IMG/VR virus record: IMGVR_UViG_3300046003_004989
Location: 64,001-128,000 of that record
DNA from: a virus
Length of the DNA stretch: 64,000 bases
Direction: 5' to 3' (one strand)
Under the pieces are notes generated by a model. It searched no databases. It worked only from the letters and a program-made list of their open reading frames with translations, and had not been told where the DNA came from. Shown here one piece after another: positions 18,442 through 47,152 of the stretch. The position numbers and the translations under genes are program-made. Every line of letters starts with the position of its first letter. Within the stretch, counting starts at the first letter, position 1.

Positions 18442-18460
18442 TTGACTCTAATTTTTTTAT

Positions 18461-30096: not shown

Positions 30097-30618
30097 TTAT
30101 ATGATGATTATAACTCTTATTCTTTGACCTATAATAGCTCCACCGTACTTATAATCAATTTCAATATCTCCATTTGAAACATTTACTCTTGTATTATTTG
30201 ATGGTACTCCAGTTGAAACTATAGAACCTTCAGTCATAATATGATTCCATTGTGTAGCACCGGCAATAAATGACCACATTGATATACTCATATCAGGAAA
30301 CTGTGGAATATCATTACCTGCTAATCCACCTGCTGGAGGAGTTAGTATAATTCCAGGATTCAAACCATCAGGAGAAACAGCAGCTAATAATTCAGATCGA
30401 GTAATTGTCAAAGTTGTAGGTCCTAAAGGGAAAAACTCTTTTACGAATTTAATTGGAGAAGAAGTTGAACCTGCAGATCCAGCAGATCCAGCTGGTCCGG
30501 TTGGACCGATAGAACCTGTAGGACCGACTAGACCTAGGGTTGATATGTCTATCGGATTTCCGAAATAATCTACGAATCTACCGTTTTCGATAAAAACTGC
30601 GTTGGAACTTGATGGCAT
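30097..30618 (-). CDS. Protein with short collagen-like G-x-x repeat (possible virion appendage)
   Basis: GLVGPTGSIGPTGPAGSAGSAGS. Confidence 0.55.
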   Translation of the reverse strand: MPSSSNAVFIENGRFVDYFGNPIDISTLGLVGPTGSIGPTGPAGSAGSAGSTSSPIKFVKEFFPLGPTTLTITRSELLAAVSPDGLNPGIILTPPAGGLAGNDIPQFPDMSISMWSFIAGATQWNHIMTEGSIVSTGVPSNNTRVNVSNGDIEIDYKYGGAIIGQRIRVIIII

Positions 30619-31574
30619 TAATTTGTACGAACTATATTTTGTATTTTATATATCAGTGATAGCATCGTTACTACTGGATCGATTACGAAACGAAGTTCGT
30701 ATGAATGCTTATTTACTTCATAGCAAATTTCACCTGCTTTACGCATTAATTGAGGTCTTTCTAATTGTACATATTCAATGAAGTCAGTTCCCATTGCTTG
30801 AATTACGTCATCTACTTTTGATGAGTAATTTGAAACGAGATATTGATAGTTTTTTACTTCATCGTTTTGTGGATTGAAAACATGTTCGTAAAGATCTTTG
30901 AATACTCCATGAAATTTCTTAACGTCATCGGCAGTAATTTTAGTCTTACCTTCGGCATGATAGCCTTGCAAAACATTAATTGTCGAACGTAAGTCTGGGA
31001 ATTTTCTACGAACAAGTTCAATTAAAGCATCTTTTTCGATATCCATGCCTTCACCTTTAATGATGTCATAGACACGTTTAAAGTATTTCTTTTCAATTTC
31101 TGCTTCTTCTGCTTCGGAAAAATCGAAGTTAAAGCATTCAAAACGAGATTGGATGTTATCAGGAATCTTATTGATGTAATTACAAGTTGCAACGAATCTA
31201 GCAGTTTTTTCAAATTGCTCGATAGTTCCACGAAGTGCTTTCATATATTGATCAGATACTCCATCGAACTCATCTAATATGACAACCTTAAGTTTCTTTT
31301 CGCCATCAATAACAGACAACGTAGAACAAAATTCCATAATCTTAGTACGAACAGTATCAACTCCTGTTTCAACTGAACAGTTAATGTACATATATGGATT
31401 GTCACCTGCAATAACTTTAGCAGTTGATGTTTTTCCAGTTCCTGGAGATCCATGGAATAAGAAGTTCATATACAAACCATTGCTTAGTTTGGTTGCGATT
31501 CTTTCTGGAAGAATCAATTCATCTAAAGTAGAAGGACGATATCTTTCAGTCCACAGAGCTTTTTTTGGATTCAT
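30618..31574 (-). CDS. gp44: Clamp loader AAA+ subunit (gp44 / RFC-like)
   Basis: WTERYRP, GSPGTGKT, ILDEFD, SRF and FPDLR motifs. Confidence 0.95.
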   Translation of the reverse strand: MNPKKALWTERYRPSTLDELILPERIATKLSNGLYMNFLFHGSPGTGKTSTAKVIAGDNPYMYINCSVETGVDTVRTKIMEFCSTLSVIDGEKKLKVVILDEFDGVSDQYMKALRGTIEQFEKTARFVATCNYINKIPDNIQSRFECFNFDFSEAEEAEIEKKYFKRVYDIIKGEGMDIEKDALIELVRRKFPDLRSTINVLQGYHAEGKTKITADDVKKFHGVFKDLYEHVFNPQNDEVKNYQYLVSNYSSKVDDVIQAMGTDFIEYVQLERPQLMRKAGEICYEVNKHSYELRFVIDPVVTMLSLIYKIQNIVRTN

Positions 31575-32408: not shown

Positions 32409-32870
32409 ATGGCATTTGTTCCTTATCATCAACATCTCCTCATTAAAGCTTACTGTAAGAATCCTATTCGTTCGGCAGCTGTATTAAATGAGTGGTTCAA
32501 GCAATTGGTAAACAAAGTCGGTATGGTTGTAGTTGCAGGTCCCACCTCAGTATACGTGGATGAACCTGGAAACGAAGGACTAACCGGTACAGTAACCCTT
32601 GCAACTTCGCATGCATCGATCCATATTTGGGACGAATCTCAACCAGCAATGCTACAATTTGACATCTATTCTTGTAAGAAGTATGACATTCAAATTGTTA
32701 TCGATCACTTAAATGAAATGGATTTAATTTCGTTCGATTGGATGACTATTGATAGAAATGACGGTATTGAAGTATCAGATTTTGGTACAGGTATCGAATC
32801 TACTTACACGTCAACATCAGCTCTTAAAAGATTAGACAATCTAACAGAGTACCATCAAGATGAAGAGTAA
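32409..32870 (+). CDS. speD: S-adenosylmethionine decarboxylase-like proenzyme (pyruvoyl-dependent)
   Basis: HLLI, GLTGTVTLATSHASIHIW and DIYSC motifs; the only convincing plus-strand gene. Confidence 0.85.
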   Translation: MAFVPYHQHLLIKAYCKNPIRSAAVLNEWFKQLVNKVGMVVVAGPTSVYVDEPGNEGLTGTVTLATSHASIHIWDESQPAMLQFDIYSCKKYDIQIVIDHLNEMDLISFDWMTIDRNDGIEVSDFGTGIESTYTSTSALKRLDNLTEYHQDEE

Positions 32871-32887
32871 TTTTTTAACTATACACG

Positions 32888-32920
32888 AAAAGGTCAGTAT
32901 TTCTACTGACCTTTCGTTTT
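32888..32920. terminator. Bidirectional terminator between convergent genes
   Basis: AAAGGTCAGTA...TACTGACCTTT with T runs on both strands. Confidence 0.75.
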
Positions 32921-32934
32921 GAAGTATTTCTCGA

Positions 32935-33435
32935 TTAGCTAAATTTTGTCTCTCTAGCTTTTCTTTCTTTGATATTTGTTACAGCCTTTTGAAGTTTCAT
33001 AACTGTTTGTTTTGCTTGTAGCAAATCAATTTCTGCTTTAGTTACATCAGCGTCTTCAGGTTTTTCTTTCAGTTTTGTATATAGCTTAGCCATATTTTCT
33101 TTCATCTTAGCTTCTGCTTCTTTCTCTCTTCTCATTTTTTCCTCTTTAGTAGCATTTTCATTTACTGTTGATTCTGTAGTATTAGTGAAAAAATGAGTAA
33201 CTTGATCTAAATTTTCATTAGCAACTGAAATGTGATCTTCTGCCCAATCATGTCCATTTTTAAGTATTTCATCCATTTTATTAGGATCCATAGCTAAAAG
33301 AGTTTCAACATTTTTCTTGATGCTTTTTAGATTTCCGAAAACCATGTAGTTTTCTGGTTTTCCTCCGATCGGAGCTTGTAAAGCTGCTTCATTAACGTAT
33401 TCGTCGAATGAGTATATGTTTTTAAGTGTTTTCAT
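32935..33435 (-). CDS. Putative internal head protein (capsid-targeting-like leader)
   Basis: MKTLKNIYSFDEYVNE-A; second VNE site before a coiled-coil C-terminal part. Confidence 0.65.
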   Translation of the reverse strand: MKTLKNIYSFDEYVNEAALQAPIGGKPENYMVFGNLKSIKKNVETLLAMDPNKMDEILKNGHDWAEDHISVANENLDQVTHFFTNTTESTVNENATKEEKMRREKEAEAKMKENMAKLYTKLKEKPEDADVTKAEIDLLQAKQTVMKLQKAVTNIKERKARETKFS

Positions 33436-33440
33436 TTTGA

Positions 33441-34934
33441 TTATTTCTTTTCTGATTCAAATTTGATACCTGCATGACTAACTCCTTTAGATTTACCTGC
33501 ATGATATTCGCCATCAAATGATGTTACCATGAAAGTTTTGTAAGGAGAAACTGAACAACCGATTCTTTCCATGAATTTACGATTAGCAAGGAATTTAGTA
33601 GATTTTTCTTTTCTGTCTACTAGAGAAACGTGTACATCTTTATAAGTTTTACCACCGAAAGAAACTTCCATTTCGATGATGGGACGATTATGAATATCAT
33701 CACCTACTTCGGTATTTGCAAAGCCTATAACTTTTGATTCGAATGAATTATTACCAAGTTTCCACTTTACAGTTTTTTCATCTTCAGATAATTTAACTTC
33801 GTCATATGTTAGAGAACAAGACATAGAGCCATTACCAGTGTCGAATTTAGCAACAATATCACCAATTCCAGGGATTGTGATAACTTCTCGGAAACCAATA
33901 ACTCTCTTAGAACGAATCCAATTTGCTTTATCTGATATGAAGTCTATTACATCAGAAACAACATCAATACCTGTAGCTTTTTTCAAACCGTGAGTTCCTG
34001 GAGAAGCATTAACTTCTAGAACATAGTTTTTACCGGTTTTCTTATCAACAATAATGTCAACTCCACACCAGTTACAACCTACTGCTTTAGCTGATTCGAT
34101 TGCTATTCTTTCTTGTTCAGGAGTAACTTTAGTTTTTTCTACGGTACCACCTAAAGAATAATTTGTACGGAAGTCTTTCTTAACTCGATTTCTTCTCATA
34201 TATCCAAGAAGAACCGAATCAGTGTCTTGTGGAGTAGGAGAATTGAAACGTCTAGTTAAAACGTGAATACGTAAGTCATATTCAGAGTCTATTTTTTCTT
34301 GAATAAGAGTTTCAATATTTGGTTGTACTTTCCAAAGAGTTTGAAGTACAGATTTCAAAGAAGCGAGAGAATCAACGATTGATACACCAATACCTTGAGA
34401 TCCAGAAAGTAATTTGAGGACTACTGGAAATTGTCCACCAATTGCTTTAACAGCTCCATCAATCGATTCTTCGGAATCAACAATTGCCATTTTAGGGACA
34501 GGAATACCTGCATCCATTAGAATTTTAGAAGTAACGTATTTGTTTTCACAAGCAAGAACTGATTCTAATGTGTTAACTACGAAGAAGTTTGCATCTTCCA
34601 ATTGAGAAACCAAATCTCTTGTGAAAGTACTTCTTACAATACCACGTCTAGTTAGGATTGCTGTGTCTTCAGAATCTATCTTAAATGGTTTTTTAGTTTT
34701 GTCAACTATTATGAATCCATTACCATCTTTGTCAGGTACTAGATTTGCAGTATTGATGTCAATTATACGGAATTGTACACCTCTCTTTTTACATTCAGCT
34801 TCAACTGCTGGAACTGTGTAAGATTCTTCACTAATATTAGATAGAAGAACAAGTTTTACTTTTTGTTTCTTCGCTGAGGTTTTAACTGCCTCATTGATTA
34901 CGAATTCATCAAAGTATGCTAGACGATTTTTCAT
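33441..34934 (-). CDS. rimK: RimK-family ATP-grasp ligase fused to RimK-associated retropepsin-like protease, with capsid-targeting-like leader
   Basis: ENK, FPVVLK, GSQGIGV, IQEKI, DLRIHV, DFRTNYSLGG, GVDII and LEVNASPG; C-terminal IGFRE...AKFDTGN...RP...LVDR...FLANR protease motifs; N-terminus MKNRLAYFDEFVINE. Confidence 0.9.
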   Translation of the reverse strand: MKNRLAYFDEFVINEAVKTSAKKQKVKLVLLSNISEESYTVPAVEAECKKRGVQFRIIDINTANLVPDKDGNGFIIVDKTKKPFKIDSEDTAILTRRGIVRSTFTRDLVSQLEDANFFVVNTLESVLACENKYVTSKILMDAGIPVPKMAIVDSEESIDGAVKAIGGQFPVVLKLLSGSQGIGVSIVDSLASLKSVLQTLWKVQPNIETLIQEKIDSEYDLRIHVLTRRFNSPTPQDTDSVLLGYMRRNRVKKDFRTNYSLGGTVEKTKVTPEQERIAIESAKAVGCNWCGVDIIVDKKTGKNYVLEVNASPGTHGLKKATGIDVVSDVIDFISDKANWIRSKRVIGFREVITIPGIGDIVAKFDTGNGSMSCSLTYDEVKLSEDEKTVKWKLGNNSFESKVIGFANTEVGDDIHNRPIIEMEVSFGGKTYKDVHVSLVDRKEKSTKFLANRKFMERIGCSVSPYKTFMVTSFDGEYHAGKSKGVSHAGIKFESEKK

Positions 34935-35418
34935 TTTTGCGTATATATTTTAGGAATGATTTCTGATTATCTATCATCATCCTCTTGCAATTTTCTGTGA
35001 AAGCCAAAGATGATTCAATTACTCTCTGATCGATTCTTTCCGAACCTTTAAGATAGTATTTGAAGCACTTTTCGCAAGTAAAATTACTAGGAACGAATGT
35101 GTCAATTCTGGATTTTATTGGAGTAGTACAATAAGCACAATGCCAAGAAAAAATCCTATATGAATCTTTCACTGCATTATACTGTTGGACCTCTCTTGAC
35201 TCTGGTTGAATCGAAGGACGGGTAGAATGAGATACACTTATCCTCCCATCTTCCAATCTAAAAATGGCCTGTAAGAACCTGTCATCATCAGCGTACTTCT
35301 TAATGACTGGATTTTCTTTCAAAACCTTTTGATATCTAGGAGCAAGACCTCTCAAAACAATTCCATGCTTTGTAGGAGTCTTGCCTTTATTTTGTCTTTT
35401 TATTTCAATCTTAGCCAT
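34909..35418 (-). CDS. Zinc-finger protein
   Basis: CAYC...CEKC motif. Confidence 0.6.
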   Translation of the reverse strand: MAKIEIKRQNKGKTPTKHGIVLRGLAPRYQKVLKENPVIKKYADDDRFLQAIFRLEDGRISVSHSTRPSIQPESREVQQYNAVKDSYRIFSWHCAYCTTPIKSRIDTFVPSNFTCEKCFKYYLKGSERIDQRVIESSLAFTENCKRMMIDNQKSFLKYIRKNEKSSSIL

Positions 35419-37438
35419 AGATTAAGTAGTTGTCTATCTCAGAAGATAGTGCTTCTATAAGAACATCAATTGCCCAAACTTCATTTTCGAAAGATGTGAA
35501 AGATTCACCTAAAGCTTCTTTTCTTTTCTTAAGTTCAGCAATAGCTTTCTCTAGTTTTTCGACGTTAACAGAAGCTTGTTCTTTTCTTTTCGGATCTTCA
35601 ATCTTAGAAACTGCTGCTTTAATTTTAGCAAGTTTATCTGCTTGAGGTTTTAAAACATCATCGATAGCTTTTATCTTCGCTTCTTTATCGCTAGGTTTTT
35701 CTTCCGATTGTTTGTTTTTCAACTTATCTTTTCTTTCAGCTTCAGCTTTTTTCTTATCTTGAGCTTTCTCGTACTCAACAGTTCCAGGAATTAAAGCTCC
35801 TTCAGAATCATCTTCTTTCTTATCTTCTTTCCCTTTAGGTTCTTCGGATTTTGAATCTTCTGTACTCTCAGATTCAGCTTTAGCCTTTTCTAATTTCTTA
35901 GGATCAGTTTCTTCTGCTGATTCTTCTCCACGTTTCTCAGCATCTTTCATCTGATCTTCGTGTTTCTTAAGAGCTTCTTGAGCTTTCTTAATTTGATCGT
36001 CAAGATTTTTCTTAGCTTCTGGACTAGGAATAAGTTTCATAAGTTGTTCAAGGAATTCAACTCTATTTCTGTTGCGTTCTTTCATAATGAATAACCAACA
36101 AAAGAAGTTTGCTTTCCCGAGTGCACCACCTACGAGTCCGTTCGTATTTTCTTTTTGAGATTTGATAGATTTATCAATATCTTCGAGGAATGCTTCATAT
36201 GATTTTTCAGCTTTATCAATTTGATCTCTTAAAGCTTGTTCTTTGTCTTGATCTTCAATTGCTTTATCTTCGGCAGATGTATCATTATCTTCTTCTTTAT
36301 AATCGTCAGGCATATCAGCTTCTTTAGCTTTATCAACAGCACTTTTAGCATCTGTTATTTGAGCCTTGATTACATCTTTTTTGTCTGGATCTGTTTCGTC
36401 TTTTAGAGAAGATTTAAGACTGTCAAGTTTGGACTTAGCAGCTTGAAGTTTTTCAAGATTAGCAGCTTTTGCTTTATCATCTTCTGCTTTCTTATTAGTT
36501 TCTTTCTCTTTCTCTTTTCCGATTTCAGTATTGACTTCATCTTCTGCTTCTTTAGAATTTCCTTTAAGGTCATCTAATTCCTTTGCTAATACACCTTTAT
36601 CGGATTTAGCACGTTCAATATTAGCCTTGATTTCTGCTTTCTTTTCAGAATCCTCTTCATTTTCATATTCATCTTGAAGCTTATGAATTTCTCTAATCTT
36701 AGTATGAAGTTCAGCTTTCTTGGTAATGATCGGCTCAAGATTTGCTAACCTTTCTTGTCTTTCATCGTCTTCTTCTGCTTTAGCTACTTTTTTATCGATA
36801 GCTAACTTTTCTTTATTCAATTCATCAATTGATTTAATGATTGCATCTGAAGCAATTTTATTATTAGGATCAGCCTTTTCGAGCTCTGTATTTTTAGCGA
36901 TAATCTTGTCTTTAATCTCTTTCGCTTGAGCTCTTAATTTTTCAATCTCTTCATTTTTAGATTTACCTTTCTTTTCAGGTTTAGGCGCATCACCGTCTTT
37001 AGTTTCCGGTTTTTTAGTGTCATCACCTTTAAGACCAGGAGCTTCTAACTTTTGAGGTTTTATCATGTCCGGTTTCGGAGCTTCTTTAGGACCAGTAGAA
37101 GATGCATTTGAATCAGGAGCTTTAGAAGGAGCTTCTTTCTTTTTTACTACAGCTTTTTTATTAGTGTTTGTTGGAGTAGATCTTTTCTGATTCTTATTCG
37201 GTTTTGATTGTCTTCTCTTTTGATTTTTGTTTGCTTCAACTAATTCAGCGTACATTGAATTTCCTTCAAAATCAAATTGAGATAGTTCTTCCATCAAATC
37301 TTCATATGAACAATCATCTGACATAGCAACCTCAAAATTTTCTGATATGCTAATCAAGAAATTCTCAAGGAGTTCTAAAAATCTTTGTTCTTCGTATGAT
37401 TCAAGAATGAACTGTTGTAGTTTGTTATTTTCCATCAT
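35411..37438 (-). CDS. Large Lys/Glu-rich coiled-coil protein, probably virion-associated
   Basis: 675 aa, highly charged; located in a late operon; several (I/L)xE sites at the N-terminus. Confidence 0.6.
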   Translation of the reverse strand: MMENNKLQQFILESYEEQRFLELLENFLISISENFEVAMSDDCSYEDLMEELSQFDFEGNSMYAELVEANKNQKRRQSKPNKNQKRSTPTNTNKKAVVKKKEAPSKAPDSNASSTGPKEAPKPDMIKPQKLEAPGLKGDDTKKPETKDGDAPKPEKKGKSKNEEIEKLRAQAKEIKDKIIAKNTELEKADPNNKIASDAIIKSIDELNKEKLAIDKKVAKAEEDDERQERLANLEPIITKKAELHTKIREIHKLQDEYENEEDSEKKAEIKANIERAKSDKGVLAKELDDLKGNSKEAEDEVNTEIGKEKEKETNKKAEDDKAKAANLEKLQAAKSKLDSLKSSLKDETDPDKKDVIKAQITDAKSAVDKAKEADMPDDYKEEDNDTSAEDKAIEDQDKEQALRDQIDKAEKSYEAFLEDIDKSIKSQKENTNGLVGGALGKANFFCWLFIMKERNRNRVEFLEQLMKLIPSPEAKKNLDDQIKKAQEALKKHEDQMKDAEKRGEESAEETDPKKLEKAKAESESTEDSKSEEPKGKEDKKEDDSEGALIPGTVEYEKAQDKKKAEAERKDKLKNKQSEEKPSDKEAKIKAIDDVLKPQADKLAKIKAAVSKIEDPKRKEQASVNVEKLEKAIAELKKRKEALGESFTSFENEVWAIDVLIEALSSEIDNYLIYG

Positions 37439-37446
37439 ATTTAGTA

Positions 37447-38019
37447 TTATTCGTCTCCAGGTTTTGAAGGTTTTTCCATCTCAGGACCTTCAGACATCGA
37501 AGGTATTTGAGCAGACATTTTAGGCATTTCTTTACCTGTCATTTCAGCGTATTGAGTTTTCAATTTAGCTAATTCCCCAAACTGATCAAGTTTCTTCATT
37601 TCTAAAGCTTGTTCTTGTTTCAGAGATGACTTGATTTTACCTCTTTTAAAAAGGAATGCAATATATAATGCTGTTAGTGCAGCACCTACAACTAACCCTT
37701 TTGTTATTTTTTTGGCAGTACCTACAGTTGCGTTAACTGCACTGTCCCATTCTTCTGAACCAGTATTTTCTAGATGTCCTCCAGCTTCATTAAGTGATTC
37801 ATTAAACGATTCATATAGGTATGTTAAAGTTGATTCGTTAACGTCTTCAATTGATTTGATTGATTCATTAATTCCATCACCACTATGCAGTAGAATGAAA
37901 TTTACGATATCTTCAAATTCCTGTTTTGCAGGAGAGTGATTGTAGGCGTTACAAAGCTTTCTATATTCTTTCAATTCGTCTTGAATTCGAAGAACATTCA
38001 TTGGCAATATAAAACTCAT
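37447..38019 (-). CDS. Late protein with TM helix and multiple xNE sites
   Basis: INES, VNES, FNES and LNEA followed by a hydrophobic helix; late promoter at 38054-38061. Confidence 0.6.
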   Translation of the reverse strand: MSFILPMNVLRIQDELKEYRKLCNAYNHSPAKQEFEDIVNFILLHSGDGINESIKSIEDVNESTLTYLYESFNESLNEAGGHLENTGSEEWDSAVNATVGTAKKITKGLVVGAALTALYIAFLFKRGKIKSSLKQEQALEMKKLDQFGELAKLKTQYAEMTGKEMPKMSAQIPSMSEGPEMEKPSKPGDE

Positions 38020-38079
38020 AGTTATTGTATGTTGTTAGTCTTTACGATTTAATTATATATCCTCAGCTTAAAGGTCGGC

Positions 38080-38110
38080 AAAAAAAAAGCTCTTCCGAAG
38101 AAGAGCTTTT
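38080..38110 (-). terminator. Terminator after the major capsid gene
   Basis: AAAAGCTCTT-CTTCGG-AAGAGCTTTTTTTTT. Confidence 0.85.
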
Positions 38111-38131: not shown

Positions 38132-39742
38132 TTATACTAAAGAACCTAAGTTTGGATGCATGAAAACACCTGAAGTTAAGTACATAGTTTCTGGGTGGAA
38201 ACCAGCTTCTACTAAAGCATAACGAGATTTAACCGCAACTTTAGGAGCCATAGTACCTTCAGCAATTGTTTGTACGCTTTCAGCCATTAAGTAAGGCATG
38301 AATACTAAACCAGGAGAATTACCATCACCTTTACGTCCTACCAAGAAACGTGTATCACCCCAAGCCATGTTAGGATCGTTGTAGATCGCTAGACCAGCAA
38401 GAGTACCGATTGGGTAAAGTGAACCAGACATTTGGTTGATAGTGTTTGCCATTGGAGCAGGTACGAAACCAGCAACGTCTTGAAGAGCAGAACATACTTG
38501 ACCGTTAGTTACAACGAAAGTAGCTGGTCCACGACGACCTCTAATAGCAATAAGGTTAGCGATAGCTAATACCTTAGACATGATTTTTCTTTGACGAGTT
38601 GACATGTTCTCTGAAGCAGAGTTAAGTACCTCATTTTTAACAGCTGTAGCACCTGTAAGTGTAGAGTTGTATAAGTAAGATCCGAAGTTAGTCAACGGGT
38701 TAGTTGTAGTACCAGAAACTAATACGTCAGTAGCACCAATATTCAAGAAGAAGTTGATTGCTTGTGACTTAATTACGTTAGCGTGGTTAGTTTCACCTAA
38801 GAAGAATAATCTAGTTAAGATGTTTTTGTTGATTGATTGAGTCAATTCGTTAATCAATACTGATTCTACTTGAGATACAGCATCTACTCCGAATTGTTTC
38901 AAATCTTGAACTTGCTCACGAGTTACAGCAGCAGCAACTTGGAAAGTTTTAGCTTCTACTGATTTGTTGAACAATGAAAGGTTCATGATGTTATCCATCG
39001 TACCTTCACCAGTTTCTCTTGAGTAAGGATCGTTGATTGTTTCGTTTGTTGGATAAGAAGCAGCAGCAAGAGCATTACCAGAGAATCCAGTGATGTGATC
39101 TTCAAGAGCTTTTACTAATTCAACAGAAGTAAATGATGTTGCAGTAACACCACCGATAAGAATACCAGAGATTGCAGCAGCAACAGTTGCAGTACCTGTA
39201 GTACCAGCTACTTTGAAGATTGGGTAACCATCAAGACGTGATCCACCGATGTAAGTAAATGTGTAACCAGCAGATGAACCAACAGCACCAGCAGTAAAGC
39301 CAGGTGATGGAGTAGCACCGTAGTTTAATTTAATTAAAAGTGGAGCATTACCTAAAGTACCAGCAGTTTTACCACCACCGTATACGAAGTCTAAATAAGT
39401 AAGAACACCCATTGGACCAGGCATTGGTACAACTGGAACTAAGTCAAGACCAATTGTTTGAGCAGCAACTTGCATAGCAAGAGGCAATAATGTGTGTGCT
39501 TTGTCACCTGAACCAGTCGTTTGGCTATCAAAACCAGACTGAGTAGTCGGAGAATCAGGGAAACGGGTAGCACCCATACCGTTAACAGCGCCTAATTGAG
39601 CTAAGTTGTTGTTTTCGTACAATTCATGGTAATGACAGTATTTAGACATCCACTCAACTTTAGAACGCTCAGTGATTCCAGTATTAGACTCTACGATAGA
39701 AGCCCATTTACCAAAAATTTCTTGTTCGTTAATAAGATACAT
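38132..39742 (-). CDS. gp23: Major capsid protein (gp23-like)
   Basis: DLVPVVPMPGP, VEAKT, EQVQDL, RRGPATF, MPY and KSRYAL gp23-family motifs. Confidence 0.92.
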   Translation of the reverse strand: MYLINEQEIFGKWASIVESNTGITERSKVEWMSKYCHYHELYENNNLAQLGAVNGMGATRFPDSPTTQSGFDSQTTGSGDKAHTLLPLAMQVAAQTIGLDLVPVVPMPGPMGVLTYLDFVYGGGKTAGTLGNAPLLIKLNYGATPSPGFTAGAVGSSAGYTFTYIGGSRLDGYPIFKVAGTTGTATVAAAISGILIGGVTATSFTSVELVKALEDHITGFSGNALAAASYPTNETINDPYSRETGEGTMDNIMNLSLFNKSVEAKTFQVAAAVTREQVQDLKQFGVDAVSQVESVLINELTQSINKNILTRLFFLGETNHANVIKSQAINFFLNIGATDVLVSGTTTNPLTNFGSYLYNSTLTGATAVKNEVLNSASENMSTRQRKIMSKVLAIANLIAIRGRRGPATFVVTNGQVCSALQDVAGFVPAPMANTINQMSGSLYPIGTLAGLAIYNDPNMAWGDTRFLVGRKGDGNSPGLVFMPYLMAESVQTIAEGTMAPKVAVKSRYALVEAGFHPETMYLTSGVFMHPNLGSLV

Positions 39743-39908: not shown

Positions 39909-41813
39909 TTAGTAGCCTCTACCGAAACGTTTTTTAAGACCTGCATGAACAGCTTCCATATAAGCGTCTGGAGTTTGATATGCTGCTGTTTCATTAATAG
40001 GAGCAGAAGCATTTTCATTGATAGGTGCATCTAATTTAGAAGGACGTAAATCTCTTGTAGACCAGAAGTTATCAACTGCATATTGATTATCTAAAACTTT
40101 CACAGAAGCTTGAGCTTTGATAGCATTCTTTTGTGATTCGTTAAGACCATTCCAAGATTCTTTGTATTTAGCTGGCATATTAGTCAACCAATTGAAAGAT
40201 GGAGCAGCAATAATAAATGCTGATTCATAAAGTCTTTCAGCATCTACTGAACCATAGAATTTATTGTTTTCAAAGATAGTGATTACTTCGTCTTTCTTTT
40301 CAGGTGTTAAAGAAGCAAATTGATTTCTTTTAGTTTCAGTTAAGAAGTTTAAGAAATGTAATTTGTTAGAGTTATTAGCTTCATTTACTGCTTTAGCTGA
40401 TTCTAAAATAGAATTCAATTTATCAGTAAGATTTTTCTCATAATTATCAGAACCTGCATCAATAGTAACATCGATTGCGGCTGGAGTAGCAGTAGGTTCA
40501 GAACCTTCATTTACTGGTTCAGCATTTGCATCAATAACAACTTTACCTTCATTGATTTCTTTAACGATGTGATTTAAGTAACCGCTTAAGTTTTCTGTTT
40601 GTTCTTTCAAATATTCAGTGTATTCAATGATAGATGATGTACCTTCAACGATATAATCGTTATGAGAAATTACGTTATCTAATTGTTCATTGATATGATT
40701 TTGATAAGACCAACGGTTATTAGATTCGTTAGCTACATATTTAGTGAATTCAATACCTTGATCAGCTTTTTCAGCTACAACTTTAGTATATTCAATTCCT
40801 TCATCAGCTTTCTTAGCTACAACTTTAGTGTATTCGATTAAGTGGTCAACTGATTCAGCAAGTTTTTCTGAATAGTTAATTCCTTGATTAGATCTTTCAC
40901 CAACAAGTTCAGCGTAATTTTTAACTTTCTCTAGGTTTTCGATGATGTAGTCATTATGTGAAATAAGACCATCAACAGACTCAGCAAGTTTTCCAATGTA
41001 TTCTTGAATTTGGTTAACTCTTTTAGCTGTTTCTTCAGTGTACTTAACAAGTCCTTCATTTACAGAAGTATTGTTATTTGCATTTTGGGATTCAGTTAAA
41101 GCTTTTTTAAGATTGTCAACCTCATTTTTTACATGTTTTGAGTACTCATTAAAGTCTTCAACTGTAATGTATTTTTTAGAATCCATTTCGTTGATTTTTG
41201 TTTCTTTGTTTGATTCAGTATATTTATCTTCTTCCGTAGATTTGATAGTAGACTCATCCAATGTGAAGTCAGTTTCATAGATAGAAATTAGGCTATCTTC
41301 ACCGAAACCGAAAGATTCATTTACTCTTTTTAATTCAGCATTAGCAAATCCGGGATCTGCTACTAAATCGTAAGTAAACATTTTTTTGATCTTAACATGT
41401 CCATTAGATTCAACAACACCTGCTGCTCTAGATGAAATATGAAGTGGAACTCCAGCATCAACTAATGCCATAGCTTGTTTACCTGCATCTGTATTAAGAA
41501 GTCTAATACGACCAGTTACTTTTTTAGATTTTGGATCGTATGAAAGGTCCTCAATGATATGAGAAGCATTTTTTAGGGAGATGTCAAAAGACTTAGGATG
41601 GTCAAGTTCACCAAGAAGTTTATTACCTTGCAATTTAGCTTGGAGTTCTTGGATGTGAGGCATTAACTCTTTTTCGTCGTAGATTCTATTGTTTTTGTTT
41701 CTAACGCCGATTTCAGTAAATGTACCTTCTAGCACATACTTATCTCCGTCTTTAGAAGATTGAAGATTCCCTTCGGATCTTTCTAATACGAGTAGATATT
41801 TGTTATTGCTCAT
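39909..41813 (-). CDS. gp21: Prohead protease (gp21-like) fused to scaffold/core (gp22-like)
   Basis: NKNNRIY, GELDHP, ISSRAAG and YDLVADPGF protease motifs followed by about 450 aa of coiled coil with repeats. Confidence 0.88.
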   Translation of the reverse strand: MSNNKYLLVLERSEGNLQSSKDGDKYVLEGTFTEIGVRNKNNRIYDEKELMPHIQELQAKLQGNKLLGELDHPKSFDISLKNASHIIEDLSYDPKSKKVTGRIRLLNTDAGKQAMALVDAGVPLHISSRAAGVVESNGHVKIKKMFTYDLVADPGFANAELKRVNESFGFGEDSLISIYETDFTLDESTIKSTEEDKYTESNKETKINEMDSKKYITVEDFNEYSKHVKNEVDNLKKALTESQNANNNTSVNEGLVKYTEETAKRVNQIQEYIGKLAESVDGLISHNDYIIENLEKVKNYAELVGERSNQGINYSEKLAESVDHLIEYTKVVAKKADEGIEYTKVVAEKADQGIEFTKYVANESNNRWSYQNHINEQLDNVISHNDYIVEGTSSIIEYTEYLKEQTENLSGYLNHIVKEINEGKVVIDANAEPVNEGSEPTATPAAIDVTIDAGSDNYEKNLTDKLNSILESAKAVNEANNSNKLHFLNFLTETKRNQFASLTPEKKDEVITIFENNKFYGSVDAERLYESAFIIAAPSFNWLTNMPAKYKESWNGLNESQKNAIKAQASVKVLDNQYAVDNFWSTRDLRPSKLDAPINENASAPINETAAYQTPDAYMEAVHAGLKKRFGRGY

Positions 41814-41866: not shown

Positions 41867-43480
41867 TTACATACCCGTAACTTCAGCATCTTTCTTAGCT
41901 GCTTCACGTTTTGCTTCGTCTTCTAATTCTTTTAATTTTTTGTTTAATCTTAGATCTTCTGCTGATAAACCGAGGAATCTTTGTATCAAGAATTCGGATG
42001 AGAAGTATTTAATTTCGTTCATATTAGCATCTGTTTCAACTAGACCATCTTTCATAGATTGTACGAAGTCTAATCGTTTTTGTAAGATTTCTATCTCTTT
42101 CATTTCTTCGAAGATATTGTATCTGTGATATTTGATACCAATTTGTGCTTTGAATGCATCATCTTCTTTTAATTCAGGGAAGTCAAGACACATCTGAATC
42201 CAAAGAGGTTTAACAAGAATTTCTTGGAAAACTGAACGAAGACGAGTAACAAAACGACCGAATTTAATTTCATCTCGAGTCATACCTTCGGCATTCATCT
42301 CCCATGAAGGAGGTGATTCCATATCAAAACGAGAAAGAGGAATTTTAGATACTTTGATTAACTTCTCACGGAAGTATTTAAGTGCATCAGTATCAGACAA
42401 GTCTGGACCATCATTACCAATTGTTTCAATTGTTGGTTCACCTGCATCACCTGAAGGAAACCAATATTCTTTATTGAACGGCATCATCGCTTTACCATTA
42501 ACTTTCAATTCACCTGAATCGGTATCGAAGTCAATTTGTTCACGGTAGTTTTGCATCAAAACACCAAGAGATTGTTTTGCTCTAGTTTTTGATTTACCAC
42601 CGACTGGTATAACGAATTTAGTTTTGAATGATGCATTTACTGTTGCCCAAATAACTCTTGAGTGCTCCATAATTCGGAGTAAGTTAAATGAACGGATAAG
42701 ACGCTCAACATAAGAAACACGATTAACTGTGTTAACGTTGGCATATGATATGTAAATTACTTGAGAATCGTAAATTACACGTTCTTTATTAGGTTGACCT
42801 TTGAACTGTTTCCAAAGTTTTTTACCTTCTTTGTCAAGACCTGGCTCTAATGAGATAGGATCTAATTCTTTGAAACCGATAATTCTGGTTTGCTCTTTAT
42901 TATAAATTATCTCAAATGCGAGATAACCATCAACTAACCATTTTCTAAAGTATGACCAAGCTGCGATATCATTATTGAATCCGAAGTATTGGTAAACTCT
43001 TTTAAAGTTAGTCTCTAATGCGATTTTTATTGCTTCTAATGTGCCAGGTTCTAATGTTTCATCATCAAATGCTAGCGGATAACAAAAATAATTTTTATCA
43101 TCAAATACAATACACTCATCACACAGAGTGTCTAGAATATCTTCAATTTCATCTTGTATAGCGAATTTACGAAGGTCTTCTCGTTTCTTTGGATATGATT
43201 TATCAAAAATTGAAATTGATTTTCTTAAATTGATATCTGTCATTGATAGGTTTGCAAATAGAGCATAATCGTCATATTCACCACCTGCAACGTTTCTTGG
43301 ATCCATTGTCCAACCGTAACGATCTTCGTTTATACCAATAGCCTTAGAGTTCTTCAACACCATATCGTCATACATCATACCGAATGATGATAACGACTTA
43401 AGAGCTTTACTAACGAGGTTTCTAGATGCTGGATTTGGTTTTCCAGCTGAAGTTTCGTCTCTGTTTACGAATCCTGCCAT
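41867..43480 (-). CDS. gp20: Portal protein (gp20-like)
   Basis: FRKWLVDG, ELDP, YWFP, KIPLSR and RDEIKFGRFVTRLR motifs. Confidence 0.93.
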   Translation of the reverse strand: MAGFVNRDETSAGKPNPASRNLVSKALKSLSSFGMMYDDMVLKNSKAIGINEDRYGWTMDPRNVAGGEYDDYALFANLSMTDINLRKSISIFDKSYPKKREDLRKFAIQDEIEDILDTLCDECIVFDDKNYFCYPLAFDDETLEPGTLEAIKIALETNFKRVYQYFGFNNDIAAWSYFRKWLVDGYLAFEIIYNKEQTRIIGFKELDPISLEPGLDKEGKKLWKQFKGQPNKERVIYDSQVIYISYANVNTVNRVSYVERLIRSFNLLRIMEHSRVIWATVNASFKTKFVIPVGGKSKTRAKQSLGVLMQNYREQIDFDTDSGELKVNGKAMMPFNKEYWFPSGDAGEPTIETIGNDGPDLSDTDALKYFREKLIKVSKIPLSRFDMESPPSWEMNAEGMTRDEIKFGRFVTRLRSVFQEILVKPLWIQMCLDFPELKEDDAFKAQIGIKYHRYNIFEEMKEIEILQKRLDFVQSMKDGLVETDANMNEIKYFSSEFLIQRFLGLSAEDLRLNKKLKELEDEAKREAAKKDAEVTGM

Positions 43481-44768: not shown

Positions 44769-45122
44769 TTATTCTTCGTCTTCGTCTTCAGTAGAAGCAC
44801 CTTCTTGAACTTGTGCGATTCCACCTTTACCGATCAAAGCAGAAATTTCTTCTTCTGTGAATTGAACGTCATTAGCTTTGTCTTCACCATTAAAGATATA
44901 AACACCATTAGTAACACCTTGATAGATCATATCTGTATGTTTGTCAGCATCAACAGTTAAAACGTACTCTTTACCAGGAGTAAGATCTGCAACAGTTGCA
45001 AGAGCTCCACCTACTGGATCAGCATCCGTTGTGTTAGTTGGGTTGAATCCGTCAGCATCATTAGCTTCTTGAACGTTATAATGTTCGTTTACGAATTCAT
45101 CAAATGATAGTAAATTTTTCAT
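44769..45122 (-). CDS. Putative internal head protein (capsid-targeting-like leader)
   Basis: MKNLLSFDEFVNE; late promoter at 45144-45151; paralogous to the C-terminus of 48255..49919. Confidence 0.7.
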   Translation of the reverse strand: MKNLLSFDEFVNEHYNVQEANDADGFNPTNTTDADPVGGALATVADLTPGKEYVLTVDADKHTDMIYQGVTNGVYIFNGEDKANDVQFTEEEISALIGKGGIAQVQEGASTEDEDEE

Positions 45123-45173: not shown

Positions 45174-45989
45174 TTAGTATACTGGATGACTACCAGCAGA
45201 AGCTGAATCAGTCGAATTCGTATATCCTTTAGTGTTTACATTTTGATCAGGTCCAGATGTAGGAGTGAGAGTACCCGTACCTACCATCGTAGCTTCTTCC
45301 TCTAATTTCTTACCTTGGTCATCTGTTAGAGGTTTATCTCTAAGAACTTTGTTTATTTCTACAAAGAATTGAGATTCTTCTGGTGTTAGATTAGCTTTAA
45401 CATATTTGGAAATATCTCTCATAATTTTTGAGCGCATATTATTGTTAGTTTTAATCTTTTCGTAAGATGAACCTTTCTTAAAAGTACCGTCAATGTAAGG
45501 ATATTTTTGAAGGTCCGCTAGTAGAGAATTTAATTTTGCGTCTGCATTAAATTTAGCAGCTATATTTTCTGCTTCATCTCTCATTTTAGCATAAGCTTTA
45601 TCAGATTTTATCTTTGAAAGTTTAGCAACAATGGATTGTCTCCAATTAGAAAAAATATAACCTGCAATAATCAGACCACCTCCAGCTAAAGCAGCTCCAG
45701 CTTTAATTAGATCTGCTGCAAGAATACCTTTTGTTACTTCCCACCATTGCAAATCCTCATTAATCATTTCATCAACTACAATTTCTTGAGATTCACATAT
45801 ATGAATTGTTCCTTTATTATCACGGAATTGAACTCTTCCGTTTGAAGTTTCTTTTGATACGATTACACCAGAAAATCCATCCAAAGATGTAACATAATCA
45901 CCGACTTCTAATTGACATCCGTCAAATGAATATACAGGACTAGGATAATTTTCGTTTAGGTATTGATCGTAAGATGGTAGATTTTTCAT
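45174..45989 (-). CDS. Putative internal head protein with TM helix
   Basis: MKNLPSYDQYLNE; hydrophobic AGAALAGGGLIIAGYIF segment. Confidence 0.65.
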   Translation of the reverse strand: MKNLPSYDQYLNENYPSPVYSFDGCQLEVGDYVTSLDGFSGVIVSKETSNGRVQFRDNKGTIHICESQEIVVDEMINEDLQWWEVTKGILAADLIKAGAALAGGGLIIAGYIFSNWRQSIVAKLSKIKSDKAYAKMRDEAENIAAKFNADAKLNSLLADLQKYPYIDGTFKKGSSYEKIKTNNNMRSKIMRDISKYVKANLTPEESQFFVEINKVLRDKPLTDDQGKKLEEEATMVGTGTLTPTSGPDQNVNTKGYTNSTDSASAGSHPVY

Positions 45990-47152
45990 TACTCTTCTTC
46001 GTTTTCTTTTTGTTTATCTTCTGGTTTGTCTTCTTCGTCGTGCTTATCGTCATGTTTATCATCACCTTTGGTGACCATTCCAATAGCTGTTTCACAAATA
46101 CCTACAACCCAAAGACCTTTTGCAGTATATTTCATACACATTAAAATAACTCCAATTCCTGGAAGTGCTGTCATTATCATAGTTCCAATAGCAGAAACGC
46201 CCATTTCTTTTATTAAACTTGTAACTCCAGCTTTAATAGCATATCCAGTAACAAGTGCAAATACTGCTCCAACTATAGTGAATTCAAATGGACCAGGAGC
46301 TTTAGCTACTTTTGAAAGGAATGACGAGATTCCAGAAAGACCCTTATTGGCAGCTGAACCAGCGGCATGTTCAGTAGAATGTAAAGCTTTAAATGGTTGA
46401 AACTCTGCAACTTTATGTACTAAAGCTGAAAGGAAAGGAATTTTAATTCCTCCATGATCAGAACTTTCTTTTAGGTATTGAACAAAGTCATAACTTTCAA
46501 CGATCAAATCAGAAGCAGCTAAATAAAGAGCTGTTTCTAACATTTCCGAATAACCTTCATTTGTAGAGGCAGCTTGATTTAAACCTGCACCCATTTCACT
46601 TGAGATACCACCAAACCATTTAGCAGTTGCTTTTGCCATAGATCCGAGATTTTTAACCTCTTCTTTTGCGACATCAGCTTTACCTTTAAATTTTCCTTTA
46701 GCAGCTTCTGTTATTTTTTCTTTCGATTTAGCGTAACCAGATTCTACCTGTCCTTTAATATAGTCCCAAGCTTTTTGAATGAAAGCTTTAACGATACCGA
46801 GGATTTTTTGTATTAAAGCAGAAACAGATCCACCAATTTTCATGATAGCTTCTTGAGTACCTGAAAGATATTCTTTACCCTTTTCTTTTGCTACTTGTAT
46901 AGCAGCTTTAGCTTTAGCTTTTAATTTATCTGCAATCGATTCTTCATTGAGAGTACCTTCAAAGATCGAATCCCATTGTTCAGTTTCAATGATTGCTTCA
47001 GATAGAAGACGTTCTTCTTCTGAAATATGTGGAGATTTAGATAGAGCCTCAAATAGATATTTTTTAGCGTCTATTGATTGAGATTTGAATTCAGAATAAA
47101 TTCTTTGAGCTTCAAATATCATATACTCTTCGTAAGATAATATTCTTTTCAT
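45989..47152 (-). CDS. Putative internal head protein with hydrophobic helical hairpin
   Basis: MKRILSYEEYMIFE; C-terminal hydrophobic region; acidic tail ending EEE. Confidence 0.65.
   Translation of the reverse strand: MKRILSYEEYMIFEAQRIYSEFKSQSIDAKKYLFEALSKSPHISEEERLLSEAIIETEQWDSIFEGTLNEESIADKLKAKAKAAIQVAKEKGKEYLSGTQEAIMKIGGSVSALIQKILGIVKAFIQKAWDYIKGQVESGYAKSKEKITEAAKGKFKGKADVAKEEVKNLGSMAKATAKWFGGISSEMGAGLNQAASTNEGYSEMLETALYLAASDLIVESYDFVQYLKESSDHGGIKIPFLSALVHKVAEFQPFKALHSTEHAAGSAANKGLSGISSFLSKVAKAPGPFEFTIVGAVFALVTGYAIKAGVTSLIKEMGVSAIGTMIMTALPGIGVILMCMKYTAKGLWVVGICETAIGMVTKGDDKHDDKHDEEDKPEDKQKENEEE

Follow-up and report, generated by a model that had tools for sequence, protein, structure and literature searches.

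Why would a T4-like phage place, directly after the gene for its major capsid protein, a gene that joins a glutamate ligase to a protease, and why would the product begin with a short leader resembling those of T4 head proteins? The question is raised by a gene for 497 amino acids (aa) in a stretch of 64,000 nucleotides, called here the window, which covers positions 64,001 to 128,000 of the IMG/VR virus record IMGVR_UViG_3300046003_004989. Our answer, which we hold with slightly better than even confidence on what the genes of the window suggest, is that the product of the gene is a cargo enzyme like the "internal proteins" of T4. The fusion family itself is already known (PMC2530865) and the reading as head cargo is the new element; no paper that we found connects RimK of phages with packaging or with a capsid-targeting leader.

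A RimK-Family Ligase Fused to a PF05618-Family Domain

The first-pass annotation, made from the letters of the DNA alone, had placed an open reading frame (ORF) at 33441-34934 and had read in it a full RimK ATP-grasp motif set followed by a retropepsin-like domain. The ORF is exact and lies on the minus strand, and both domains were borne out by profiles, folds and motifs. We regard the domain identification of the fusion as secure. An AlphaFold 2 (AF2) model of the whole protein reached a predicted local distance difference test (pLDDT) score of 82.7. The parts of the gene are the following:

33441..34934, minus strand: whole gene, 497 aa, made up of leader, RimK-family ligase and retropepsin-like domain (P0001)
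34890..34934, minus strand: leader, residues 1-15 (MKNRLAYFDEFVINE), with a predicted cut after Glu15 and before Ala16 (the sequence ends INE, then A)
33930..34859, minus strand: pre-ATP-grasp and ATP-grasp ligase, residues about 26-335, recognized by PF08443, TIGR00768, RimK structures, Foldseek and catalytic residues
33525..33905, minus strand: retropepsin-like (PF05618/DUF785) domain, residues about 344-470, with the catalytic D365-T366-G367 at 33834-33842
33444..33524, minus strand: clade-specific tail at the C terminus (residues 471-497), in which Y477 and G489-I490-x-F492 are conserved (columns invariant in 27 homologues)

Profiles place the ligase in the RimK family with certainty. It scores 155.4 bits against the NCBIfam model TIGR00768 (rimK_fam), above the cut-off of 143.4, and its residues 130-333 match PF08443 with an E value of 2.7e-34 (118.9 bits against a cut-off of 21). 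The solved proteins nearest to it in sequence are the E. coli and Pseudomonas RimK structures 7qyr, 5zct and 4iwx (E about 1e-23); LysX and ArgX structures match far more weakly (E about 1e-10). When the AF2 model was compared with RimK by Foldseek, the template modeling (TM) scores were 0.85-0.90, with 0.90 (on target) for 7qys. The nucleotide- and Mg-binding motifs of the ATP-grasp fold are intact, and 27 homologues of 53-96% identity show no variation at K174, the segment SGSQGIGV, QE213, R256-x-N258, D293 and E307-x-N309. Judged by these motifs, the enzyme is a catalytically intact RimK-family alpha-L-glutamate ligase.

The second domain gives a weak match to PF05618 when this sequence is used alone (E 0.0064, 16.8 bits, under the Pfam cut-off of 27), and 18 of the 27 family members match the same model, the best of them with an E value of 1e-7. 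When a profile was built from 27 C-terminal domains, marine homologues at 26-34% identity among them (set A2), it matched RloA2 (9g59, E 9.8e-14), RloA (9g58, E 7.8e-12) and the DUF785 protein 2pma (E 1.8e-9). Likewise, the fold of the domain, modelled as a monomer (pLDDT 89.5), matches RloA2, 2pma and RloA with TM scores of 0.72-0.80, followed by the proteases of HIV and SIV. Both membership of PF05618 by sequence and a retropepsin fold with its D-T/S-G motif were found in this way. None of the 27 close homologues (set A1) departs from the segment K-F-D-T-G-N-G (K363-G369); in the broader set A2, invariance is limited to K, D, G and N (the aspartate being Asp27 in A2 numbering), and T (Thr28) is nearly invariant. 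The motif takes the varied form K[FLM]D[TS]G[NS][GS], and almost every full-length homologue has its K[FLM]D[TS]G part. Conservation extends to the residues that align with RloA's basic substrate channel (AK-x-DTG, RP-I/V and DR).

The name "RimB-like protease", given to this domain in the first-pass annotation, is correct at the level of the family only, because RloA2 scores nearer than RimB. The domain belongs to PF05618, the family of RimB and RloA, but among the NCBIfam models RloA2 gave the better match (E 1.7e-8) and the RimB equivalog NF052261 was missed, with an E value of 0.05 and 13.4 bits against the 200 needed, confined to the DTG region. Members of PF05618 cut poly-glutamate, including Glu tails on proteins (PMC11957791, PMC12239564), and the chemistry of the fusion is likely to consist of adding and cutting alpha-linked Glu. 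The phrase "writer plus eraser" in the same annotation covers half of the known biology and omits that Pseudomonas RimB also stimulates the synthesis of poly-Glu by RimK (PMC11957791). Past the protease domain, residues 471-497 are without counterpart in RloA or 2pma, whose alignments stop near residue 470, and this tail may form a strand of a dimer interface.

An N-Terminal Leader Resembling the Capsid-Targeting Sequence of T4

The capsid-targeting sequence of T4 has 10 residues, with targeting determinants at positions 4 and 7 and processing determinants at 8 and 10, and T4 gp21 cleaves after L/I-x-E (PMC9026906). The common leader form of the genome studied here, MKNIPTFEDFVNE, keeps the T4 register exactly: positions -6 and -3 are aromatic, -2 is aliphatic and P1 is Glu. 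Relative to that form, the leader of the RimK protein has one residue inserted (FV-I-NE). Across 27 close homologues the leader follows the consensus YFxEFV(L/I)NE, then A, and is conserved at the protein level, and residues 1-23 are disordered in the AF2 model (pLDDT <50). The motif stands within the first 24 residues of 34 of the 215 non-overlapping ORFs, against 3.0 expected from the internal rate. The capsid-targeting-like leader noticed at first reading is upheld. The enzyme that would be expected to cleave it is encoded nearby:

39909..41813, minus strand: gp21/S77-type prohead protease joined to a coiled-coil region that resembles a scaffold (PF03420 at E 4.5e-12, above the cut-off; phrog_207 head maturation protease at E 1e-40)

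Two marks of T4-type internal proteins, a leader in register ending in L/I/V-x-E and a gp21-family protease in the same genome, therefore occur together. We also considered whether the prohead protease might separate the ligase from the protease domain and rejected this idea, given that the other conserved [LIV]xE sites of the RimK protein lie inside folded cores. Since the leader offers the only conserved site of this kind outside such cores, the two domains should stay joined.

Leaders of the same kind recur among the relatives. The family is widespread: in a homologue search that scored only the 8000 candidates sharing the most words, at least 746 homologues were recovered at E 1e-3. In metagenomes close homologues are numerous, and the contigs that carry them reach 261 kb. 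IMG/VR yielded 80 loci, with the fusion retained down to 30% identity. Homologues from this source, at 30-79% identity, keep lineage-specific leaders, such as MKHFEKYQMITE then A or NFQSFLNE then A, and those of a marine group (MKSFQELIVE then E; MKSFNEIITE then A) are nearly T4-like in sequence. When 58 distinct full-length proteins were scanned, a strict T4-register pattern fitted the leader in 23 and a loose pattern in 34, the strict pattern being found 0 times in protein bodies. The C-terminal domain alone matches 286 cluster representatives, and a leader-like start was also seen in several distant representatives found by that domain alone.

A further homologue comes from a phage whose particles have been analyzed. 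Gene 112 of YerA41 (YerA41_066, 473 aa), described as a "putative ribosomal protein modification protein", was particle-associated in liquid chromatography-tandem mass spectrometry of purified particles (PMC7354516); its product has the same two domains and is 31.5% identical to the fusion over 90% of its length. Because its leader resembles the head-loading tag of T4, the fusion is probably carried in the virion and coinjected with the DNA, and packaging gains weight from the retention of the leader down to 30% identity, from the gp21-type protease and from the particle-associated homologue of YerA41. As far as sequence can tell, we judge packaging and processing of the fusion protein to be rather probable.

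Domain Architecture among Relatives

The ligase precedes the protease in the fusion, and in all of the nearest C-terminal-domain representatives that have a ligase the protease is likewise C-terminal (25 parsed among 150 listed). The idea that this order is specific to phages was examined and rejected, haloarchaea having the same order (PMC2530865) and PF05618 matches occurring in three archaeal control genomes. The neighbors of the fusion in other clades are replication genes or rows of small ORFs that bear a leader. The ligase of the Methylophilales phage Melnitz-3 (locus L086, 82-1131) starts with the leader-like KFSQFITE, then E, and stops exactly at the domain junction (..NNW), with no protease domain; a 73-aa ORF follows it.

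Several variants of this architecture were seen on the way. The IMG/VR loci L031 and L034 have a tandem pair, in which the fusion comes first and a paralogue with the ligase alone (322-329 aa) second; in L031 this paralogue bears a leader. One homologue (P0110) has an 84-residue Cys-rich N-terminal extension with a leader of its own (RFFQFLNE, then E) before the usual leader, an arrangement like a polyprotein with two cargoes, and another (P0104) ends in the leader-like FDNFLNES, perhaps by read-through into the next gene. The proteins P0196, P0200, P0218 and P0233 and about 35 others, of 390-860 aa, have the PF05618-like domain at the N terminus; the P0196-type group shows the motif ..LVIGLEEPILIKG.GE..AK[IV]DSGN, after which comes a long region without Pfam match.

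Genomic Context

By its genes, the phage is a large, uncultured, T4-like one. The source record has 144,480 bases and was estimated by CheckV to be ~53% complete; in a record of this completeness we found no gene for ribosomal protein S21. The major capsid protein is closest to that of an uncultured 462-kb phage and to those of the Prevotella Lak phages. No DNA near-identical to the window was found in the phage collection searched. A scan of genome contigs returned only two homologous contigs from metagenome-assembled genomes (MAGs), both of them short (Paludibacteraceae and Fluviibacter); they are probably binned phage DNA and therefore give no host assignment. The features that surround the RimK gene, with two further T4-type genes, are listed below.

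41867-43480: T4-type portal gene
38132..39742, minus strand: T4 gp23-type major capsid protein (PF07068, E 6.9e-37), directly upstream of the RimK operon
38085..38110, minus strand: terminator-like hairpin with a T-run, 3' of the major capsid gene
38053..38060, minus strand: promoter-like motif ATATATAA, preceding five co-directional genes
37447..38019, minus strand: operon gene 1, 190 aa, syntenic in relatives
35411..37438, minus strand: operon gene 2, a Lys/Glu-rich low-complexity protein of 675 aa with the leader-like start ..LQQFILE, then S
34909..35418, minus strand: operon gene 3, a zinc-ribbon-like protein (CxxC...CxxC) of 169 aa without leader, whose stop overlaps the RimK start by 26 nucleotides (nt)
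32935..33435, minus strand: operon gene 5, the last, 166 aa, with the leader MKTLKNIYSFDEYVNE, then A
32889..32914, minus strand: 11-bp hairpin between the end of the operon and a convergent gene resembling S-adenosylmethionine decarboxylase (AdoMetDC), read from the sequence and not present in the terminator scan
30618-31574: gp44-type clamp loader gene

The RimK gene had been described as standing at the end of a late operon with a promoter at 38054. The motif ATATATAA is indeed found at 38053-38060, but the gene is the fourth of five; the operon follows the major capsid gene immediately, and the RimK gene forms part of a block whose products seem to be head-internal. Eight of the nine copies of ATATATAA in the window are on the coding strand and most are just before structural genes, as are the minus-strand copies at 18460, 38053, 39823 (5' of the capsid gene), 41832 (5' of the protease gene), 51428 and 52398. 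The total count does not exceed that of shuffled sequences, only strand and placement being notable, and the T4 late promoter TATAAATA showed no enrichment. We consider ATATATAA a candidate late promoter element distinct from TATAAATA.

The close and middle clades share the gene order capsid, 190-aa protein, Lys/Glu-rich protein, zinc ribbon and RimK. The Lys/Glu-rich protein, which varies from 365 to 1044 aa across relatives, may be a scaffold or internal head protein. Directly 5' of the RimK fusion, 24 related loci have the 169-aa gene, the gap between the two ranging from -44 to 0 nt, and W92, C94, C97, C115 and C118 of its product are invariant in 19 distinct homologues. No family match was found for this protein, and an Atlas search was uninformative (scores of 0.88 with TM <0.35); it may be a partner or a regulator of the enzyme. 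The AdoMetDC-like gene that converges on the operon (32409-32870, plus strand; PF02675, E 5e-13) encodes a protein ending ..QDEE.

Head Cargo or Cytoplasmic Enzyme

If the gene encodes an internal head protein, the leader would dock the fusion protein onto the scaffolding core of the prohead, and the S77 protease would cleave it after Glu15. The two-domain enzyme of ~54 kDa would be kept whole, its linker being without a conserved cleavage site, and it would stay in the head and enter the next host along with the DNA. There the ligase, which is probably oligomeric, would let the protease domains pair into active dimers and would add alpha-linked Glu to the C-terminal Glu of a protein, or to free Glu, while the protease domain would trim or pace the Glu chains, as RimB does with RimK. 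The precedent target is bS6, which would fit only hosts whose S6 ends in Glu. Extended to other phages, this scheme leads us to a proposal that we put forward tentatively, as one that is more apt to fail than to hold: several T4-like lineages (freshwater jumbo phages of the Bacteroidota type, marine SAR11 and OM43 myophages, and YerA41) may deliver a ready-made ligase/protease together with their DNA, which would act before any phage expression by rewriting C-terminal Glu tails of a host protein (the precedent being bS6 on the 30S platform) or by flooding the cell with poly-alpha-glutamate.

Several observations weigh against head cargo, and some of them would suit instead an unpackaged auxiliary enzyme of the cytoplasm, active during the middle or late phase of infection with ribosomes or poly-Glu pools as its targets, an alternative that we think unlikely yet worth serious attention. 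The N terminus of the YerA41 homologue differs and has no recognizable leader, and this homologue is expressed in the middle phase and belongs to a different phage lineage. In addition, the list of 63 proteins of YerA41 particles includes ribonucleotide reductase, helicases and polymerases (PMC7354516); because such replication enzymes are also listed, that proteome is permissive and the support that it lends to packaging is weak. The fusion gene stands among replication genes in phage Mosig and the marine relatives, and the RimK-like proteins of cyanophages have neither leader nor protease domain. In the window itself, the zinc-ribbon partner is translationally coupled to the RimK gene and has no leader, as would suit action in the producing cell. 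As to the target, the ligase falls under the cut-off of the S6-ligase equivalog NF007764 (96.3 bits against 331), and S6 ends in Glu-Glu in only 3 of 30 sampled genomes of Bacteroidota, the phylum of one of the MAGs with a homologous contig (5 of 30 end in Glu).

An enzyme confined to the cytoplasm would, nevertheless, have to give the shared N-terminal motif another role, such as co-regulated translation, turnover or assembly of a cytoplasmic body. Against this stand the T4 targeting and cleavage register of the leader, with [LIV]-x-E before a small residue in a disordered segment, its retention over very long divergence and on about 34 unrelated proteins, and the matching protease encoded by the phage. 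The genes of T4 internal proteins, moreover, are not confined to late operons, which also counts against the cytoplasmic alternative.

Possible Substrates

Even if the enzyme is delivered as head cargo, its substrate is not fixed by model scores, because the ligase passes the family model yet fails the S6-ligase equivalog, with the MptN model scoring higher. Since few of the sampled S6 proteins end in Glu, S6 is a possible target for some hosts only. Two of the three S6 proteins with Glu-Glu ends carry long encoded Glu runs. We observed that the S6 genes of two Bacteroidota genomes (loci L090 and L091 in G005 and G010) encode ..EDEEEEEE and ..GEEEEEEE, that is, tails that are "pre-glutamylated".

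Action inside the prohead or head, on C-terminal Glu residues made by the protease or on leader proteins with Glu-Glu tails, would be compatible with packaging. The cleavage rule of the T4 protease leaves a C-terminal Glu, a group that RimK-type ligases extend (PMC9026906), the gene lies within a block of apparent head-internal proteins, and two leader-bearing ORFs located 5' of the portal gene have Glu-rich ends:

44769-45122, minus strand: leader-bearing ORF ending ..EDEDEE
45989-47152, minus strand: leader-bearing ORF ending ..ENEEE

It is conceivable, from their ends, that these two proteins are substrates of the ligase. However, EE ends occur in 2 of 34 leader-bearing ORFs and in 3 of 181 others, a difference that is not significant, and no relatives of the 387-aa protein of the pair were found in IMG/VR from which the conservation of its tail could be read, so that the idea of encoded substrates was dropped. 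Further polyanion in a head filled with DNA would bring no obvious benefit, and the supply of ATP in the prohead is a doubtful point. We find action within the head improbable for these reasons. The 387-aa protein also has a hydrophobic C-terminal region.

Least probable of all, and in our view barely credible, is a ligase whose substrate is a small molecule (of cofactor or polyamine type, or free Glu only) and not a protein: the MptN model outscores the S6-ligase model (131 bits, short of its own cut-off of 350, against 96), CofF also matched, the neighboring AdoMetDC-like gene, on the opposite strand, is found in synteny in several relatives, and free poly-alpha-Glu is a product of RimK itself (PMC11957791), but no equivalog cut-off was reached, the solved structures nearest in sequence and fold are those of RimK proper, and the family of the fused domain cuts poly-Glu peptides and Glu tails on proteins.

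Comparison with Known Systems

Fusions of this kind were described by Monier, Claverie and Ogata (2008), who found that marine phage-like contigs of the Global Ocean Sampling encode RimK with a C-terminal DUF785, and noted that DUF785 is N-terminal in some bacterial RimK fusions and C-terminal in those of haloarchaea (PMC2530865). The putative marine phage RimK of that study has the same order of ATP-grasp and PF05618 domains and comes from T4-like contigs, beside regA, clamp-loader, terminase or sheath genes; phage Mosig and our IMG/VR loci L047-L081 belong to the same marine group, at 30-35% identity to the gene of the window. DUF785 was treated there as a domain of unknown function, and neither the N-terminal leader nor a link to the head was mentioned (PMC2530865). 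In contrast to the marine group, the gene described here is found in a phage of freshwater type and directly after the capsid gene.

In the Pseudomonas RimK/RimB pair and the bacterial RimBK hybrids, too, a RimK-family ligase goes together with a retropepsin-like protease that has the DTG motif and belongs to PF05618. A single chain holding both is known already from the RimBK hybrid of Desulfotalea (DP2392), reported in 2025 to be an active protease (PMC11957791). The order in RimBK is B then K, whereas the phage fusion is reversed, K then B, and so does not have the RimBK architecture. Compared with Pseudomonas RimK/RimB, it is without RimA, has an added N-terminal leader and misses both equivalog models. 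For the protease domain, the best matches by profile and fold are RloA and RloA2 (9G58 and 9G59; PMC12239564) and Lpg0085 (2PMA), with which it has in common the DTG and the aligned basic residues. These are, however, stand-alone periplasmic proteins with signal peptides, while the phage domain is fused to a ligase and has an extra tail of 27 residues.

The system that bears most directly on head cargo is that of T4 itself, in which IPI-III and Alt have a capsid-targeting sequence and are processed by gp21, Alt being a packaged enzyme (PMC9026906, PMC3012670). The likeness consists of a short leader in the same register and an encoded protease of the gp21 family, and Alt provides the precedent for a packaged enzyme that modifies the host. 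What differs is the one-residue insertion in the RimK copy of the leader, and the cargo, which here would be a glutamate ligase/protease and not an ADP-ribosyltransferase or an anti-restriction protein. Since its activities are well predicted and easy to assay, the fusion is a good first test of the T4-like leader as a mark of head cargo in uncultured phages. Should it prove to be packaged and injected, it would be the first cargo of a phage to act by protein glutamylation; a clear selective context would then be at hand for RimK-type modification, the role of which is still little understood even in bacteria, and the enzyme would stand as a translational counterpart of T4 Alt.

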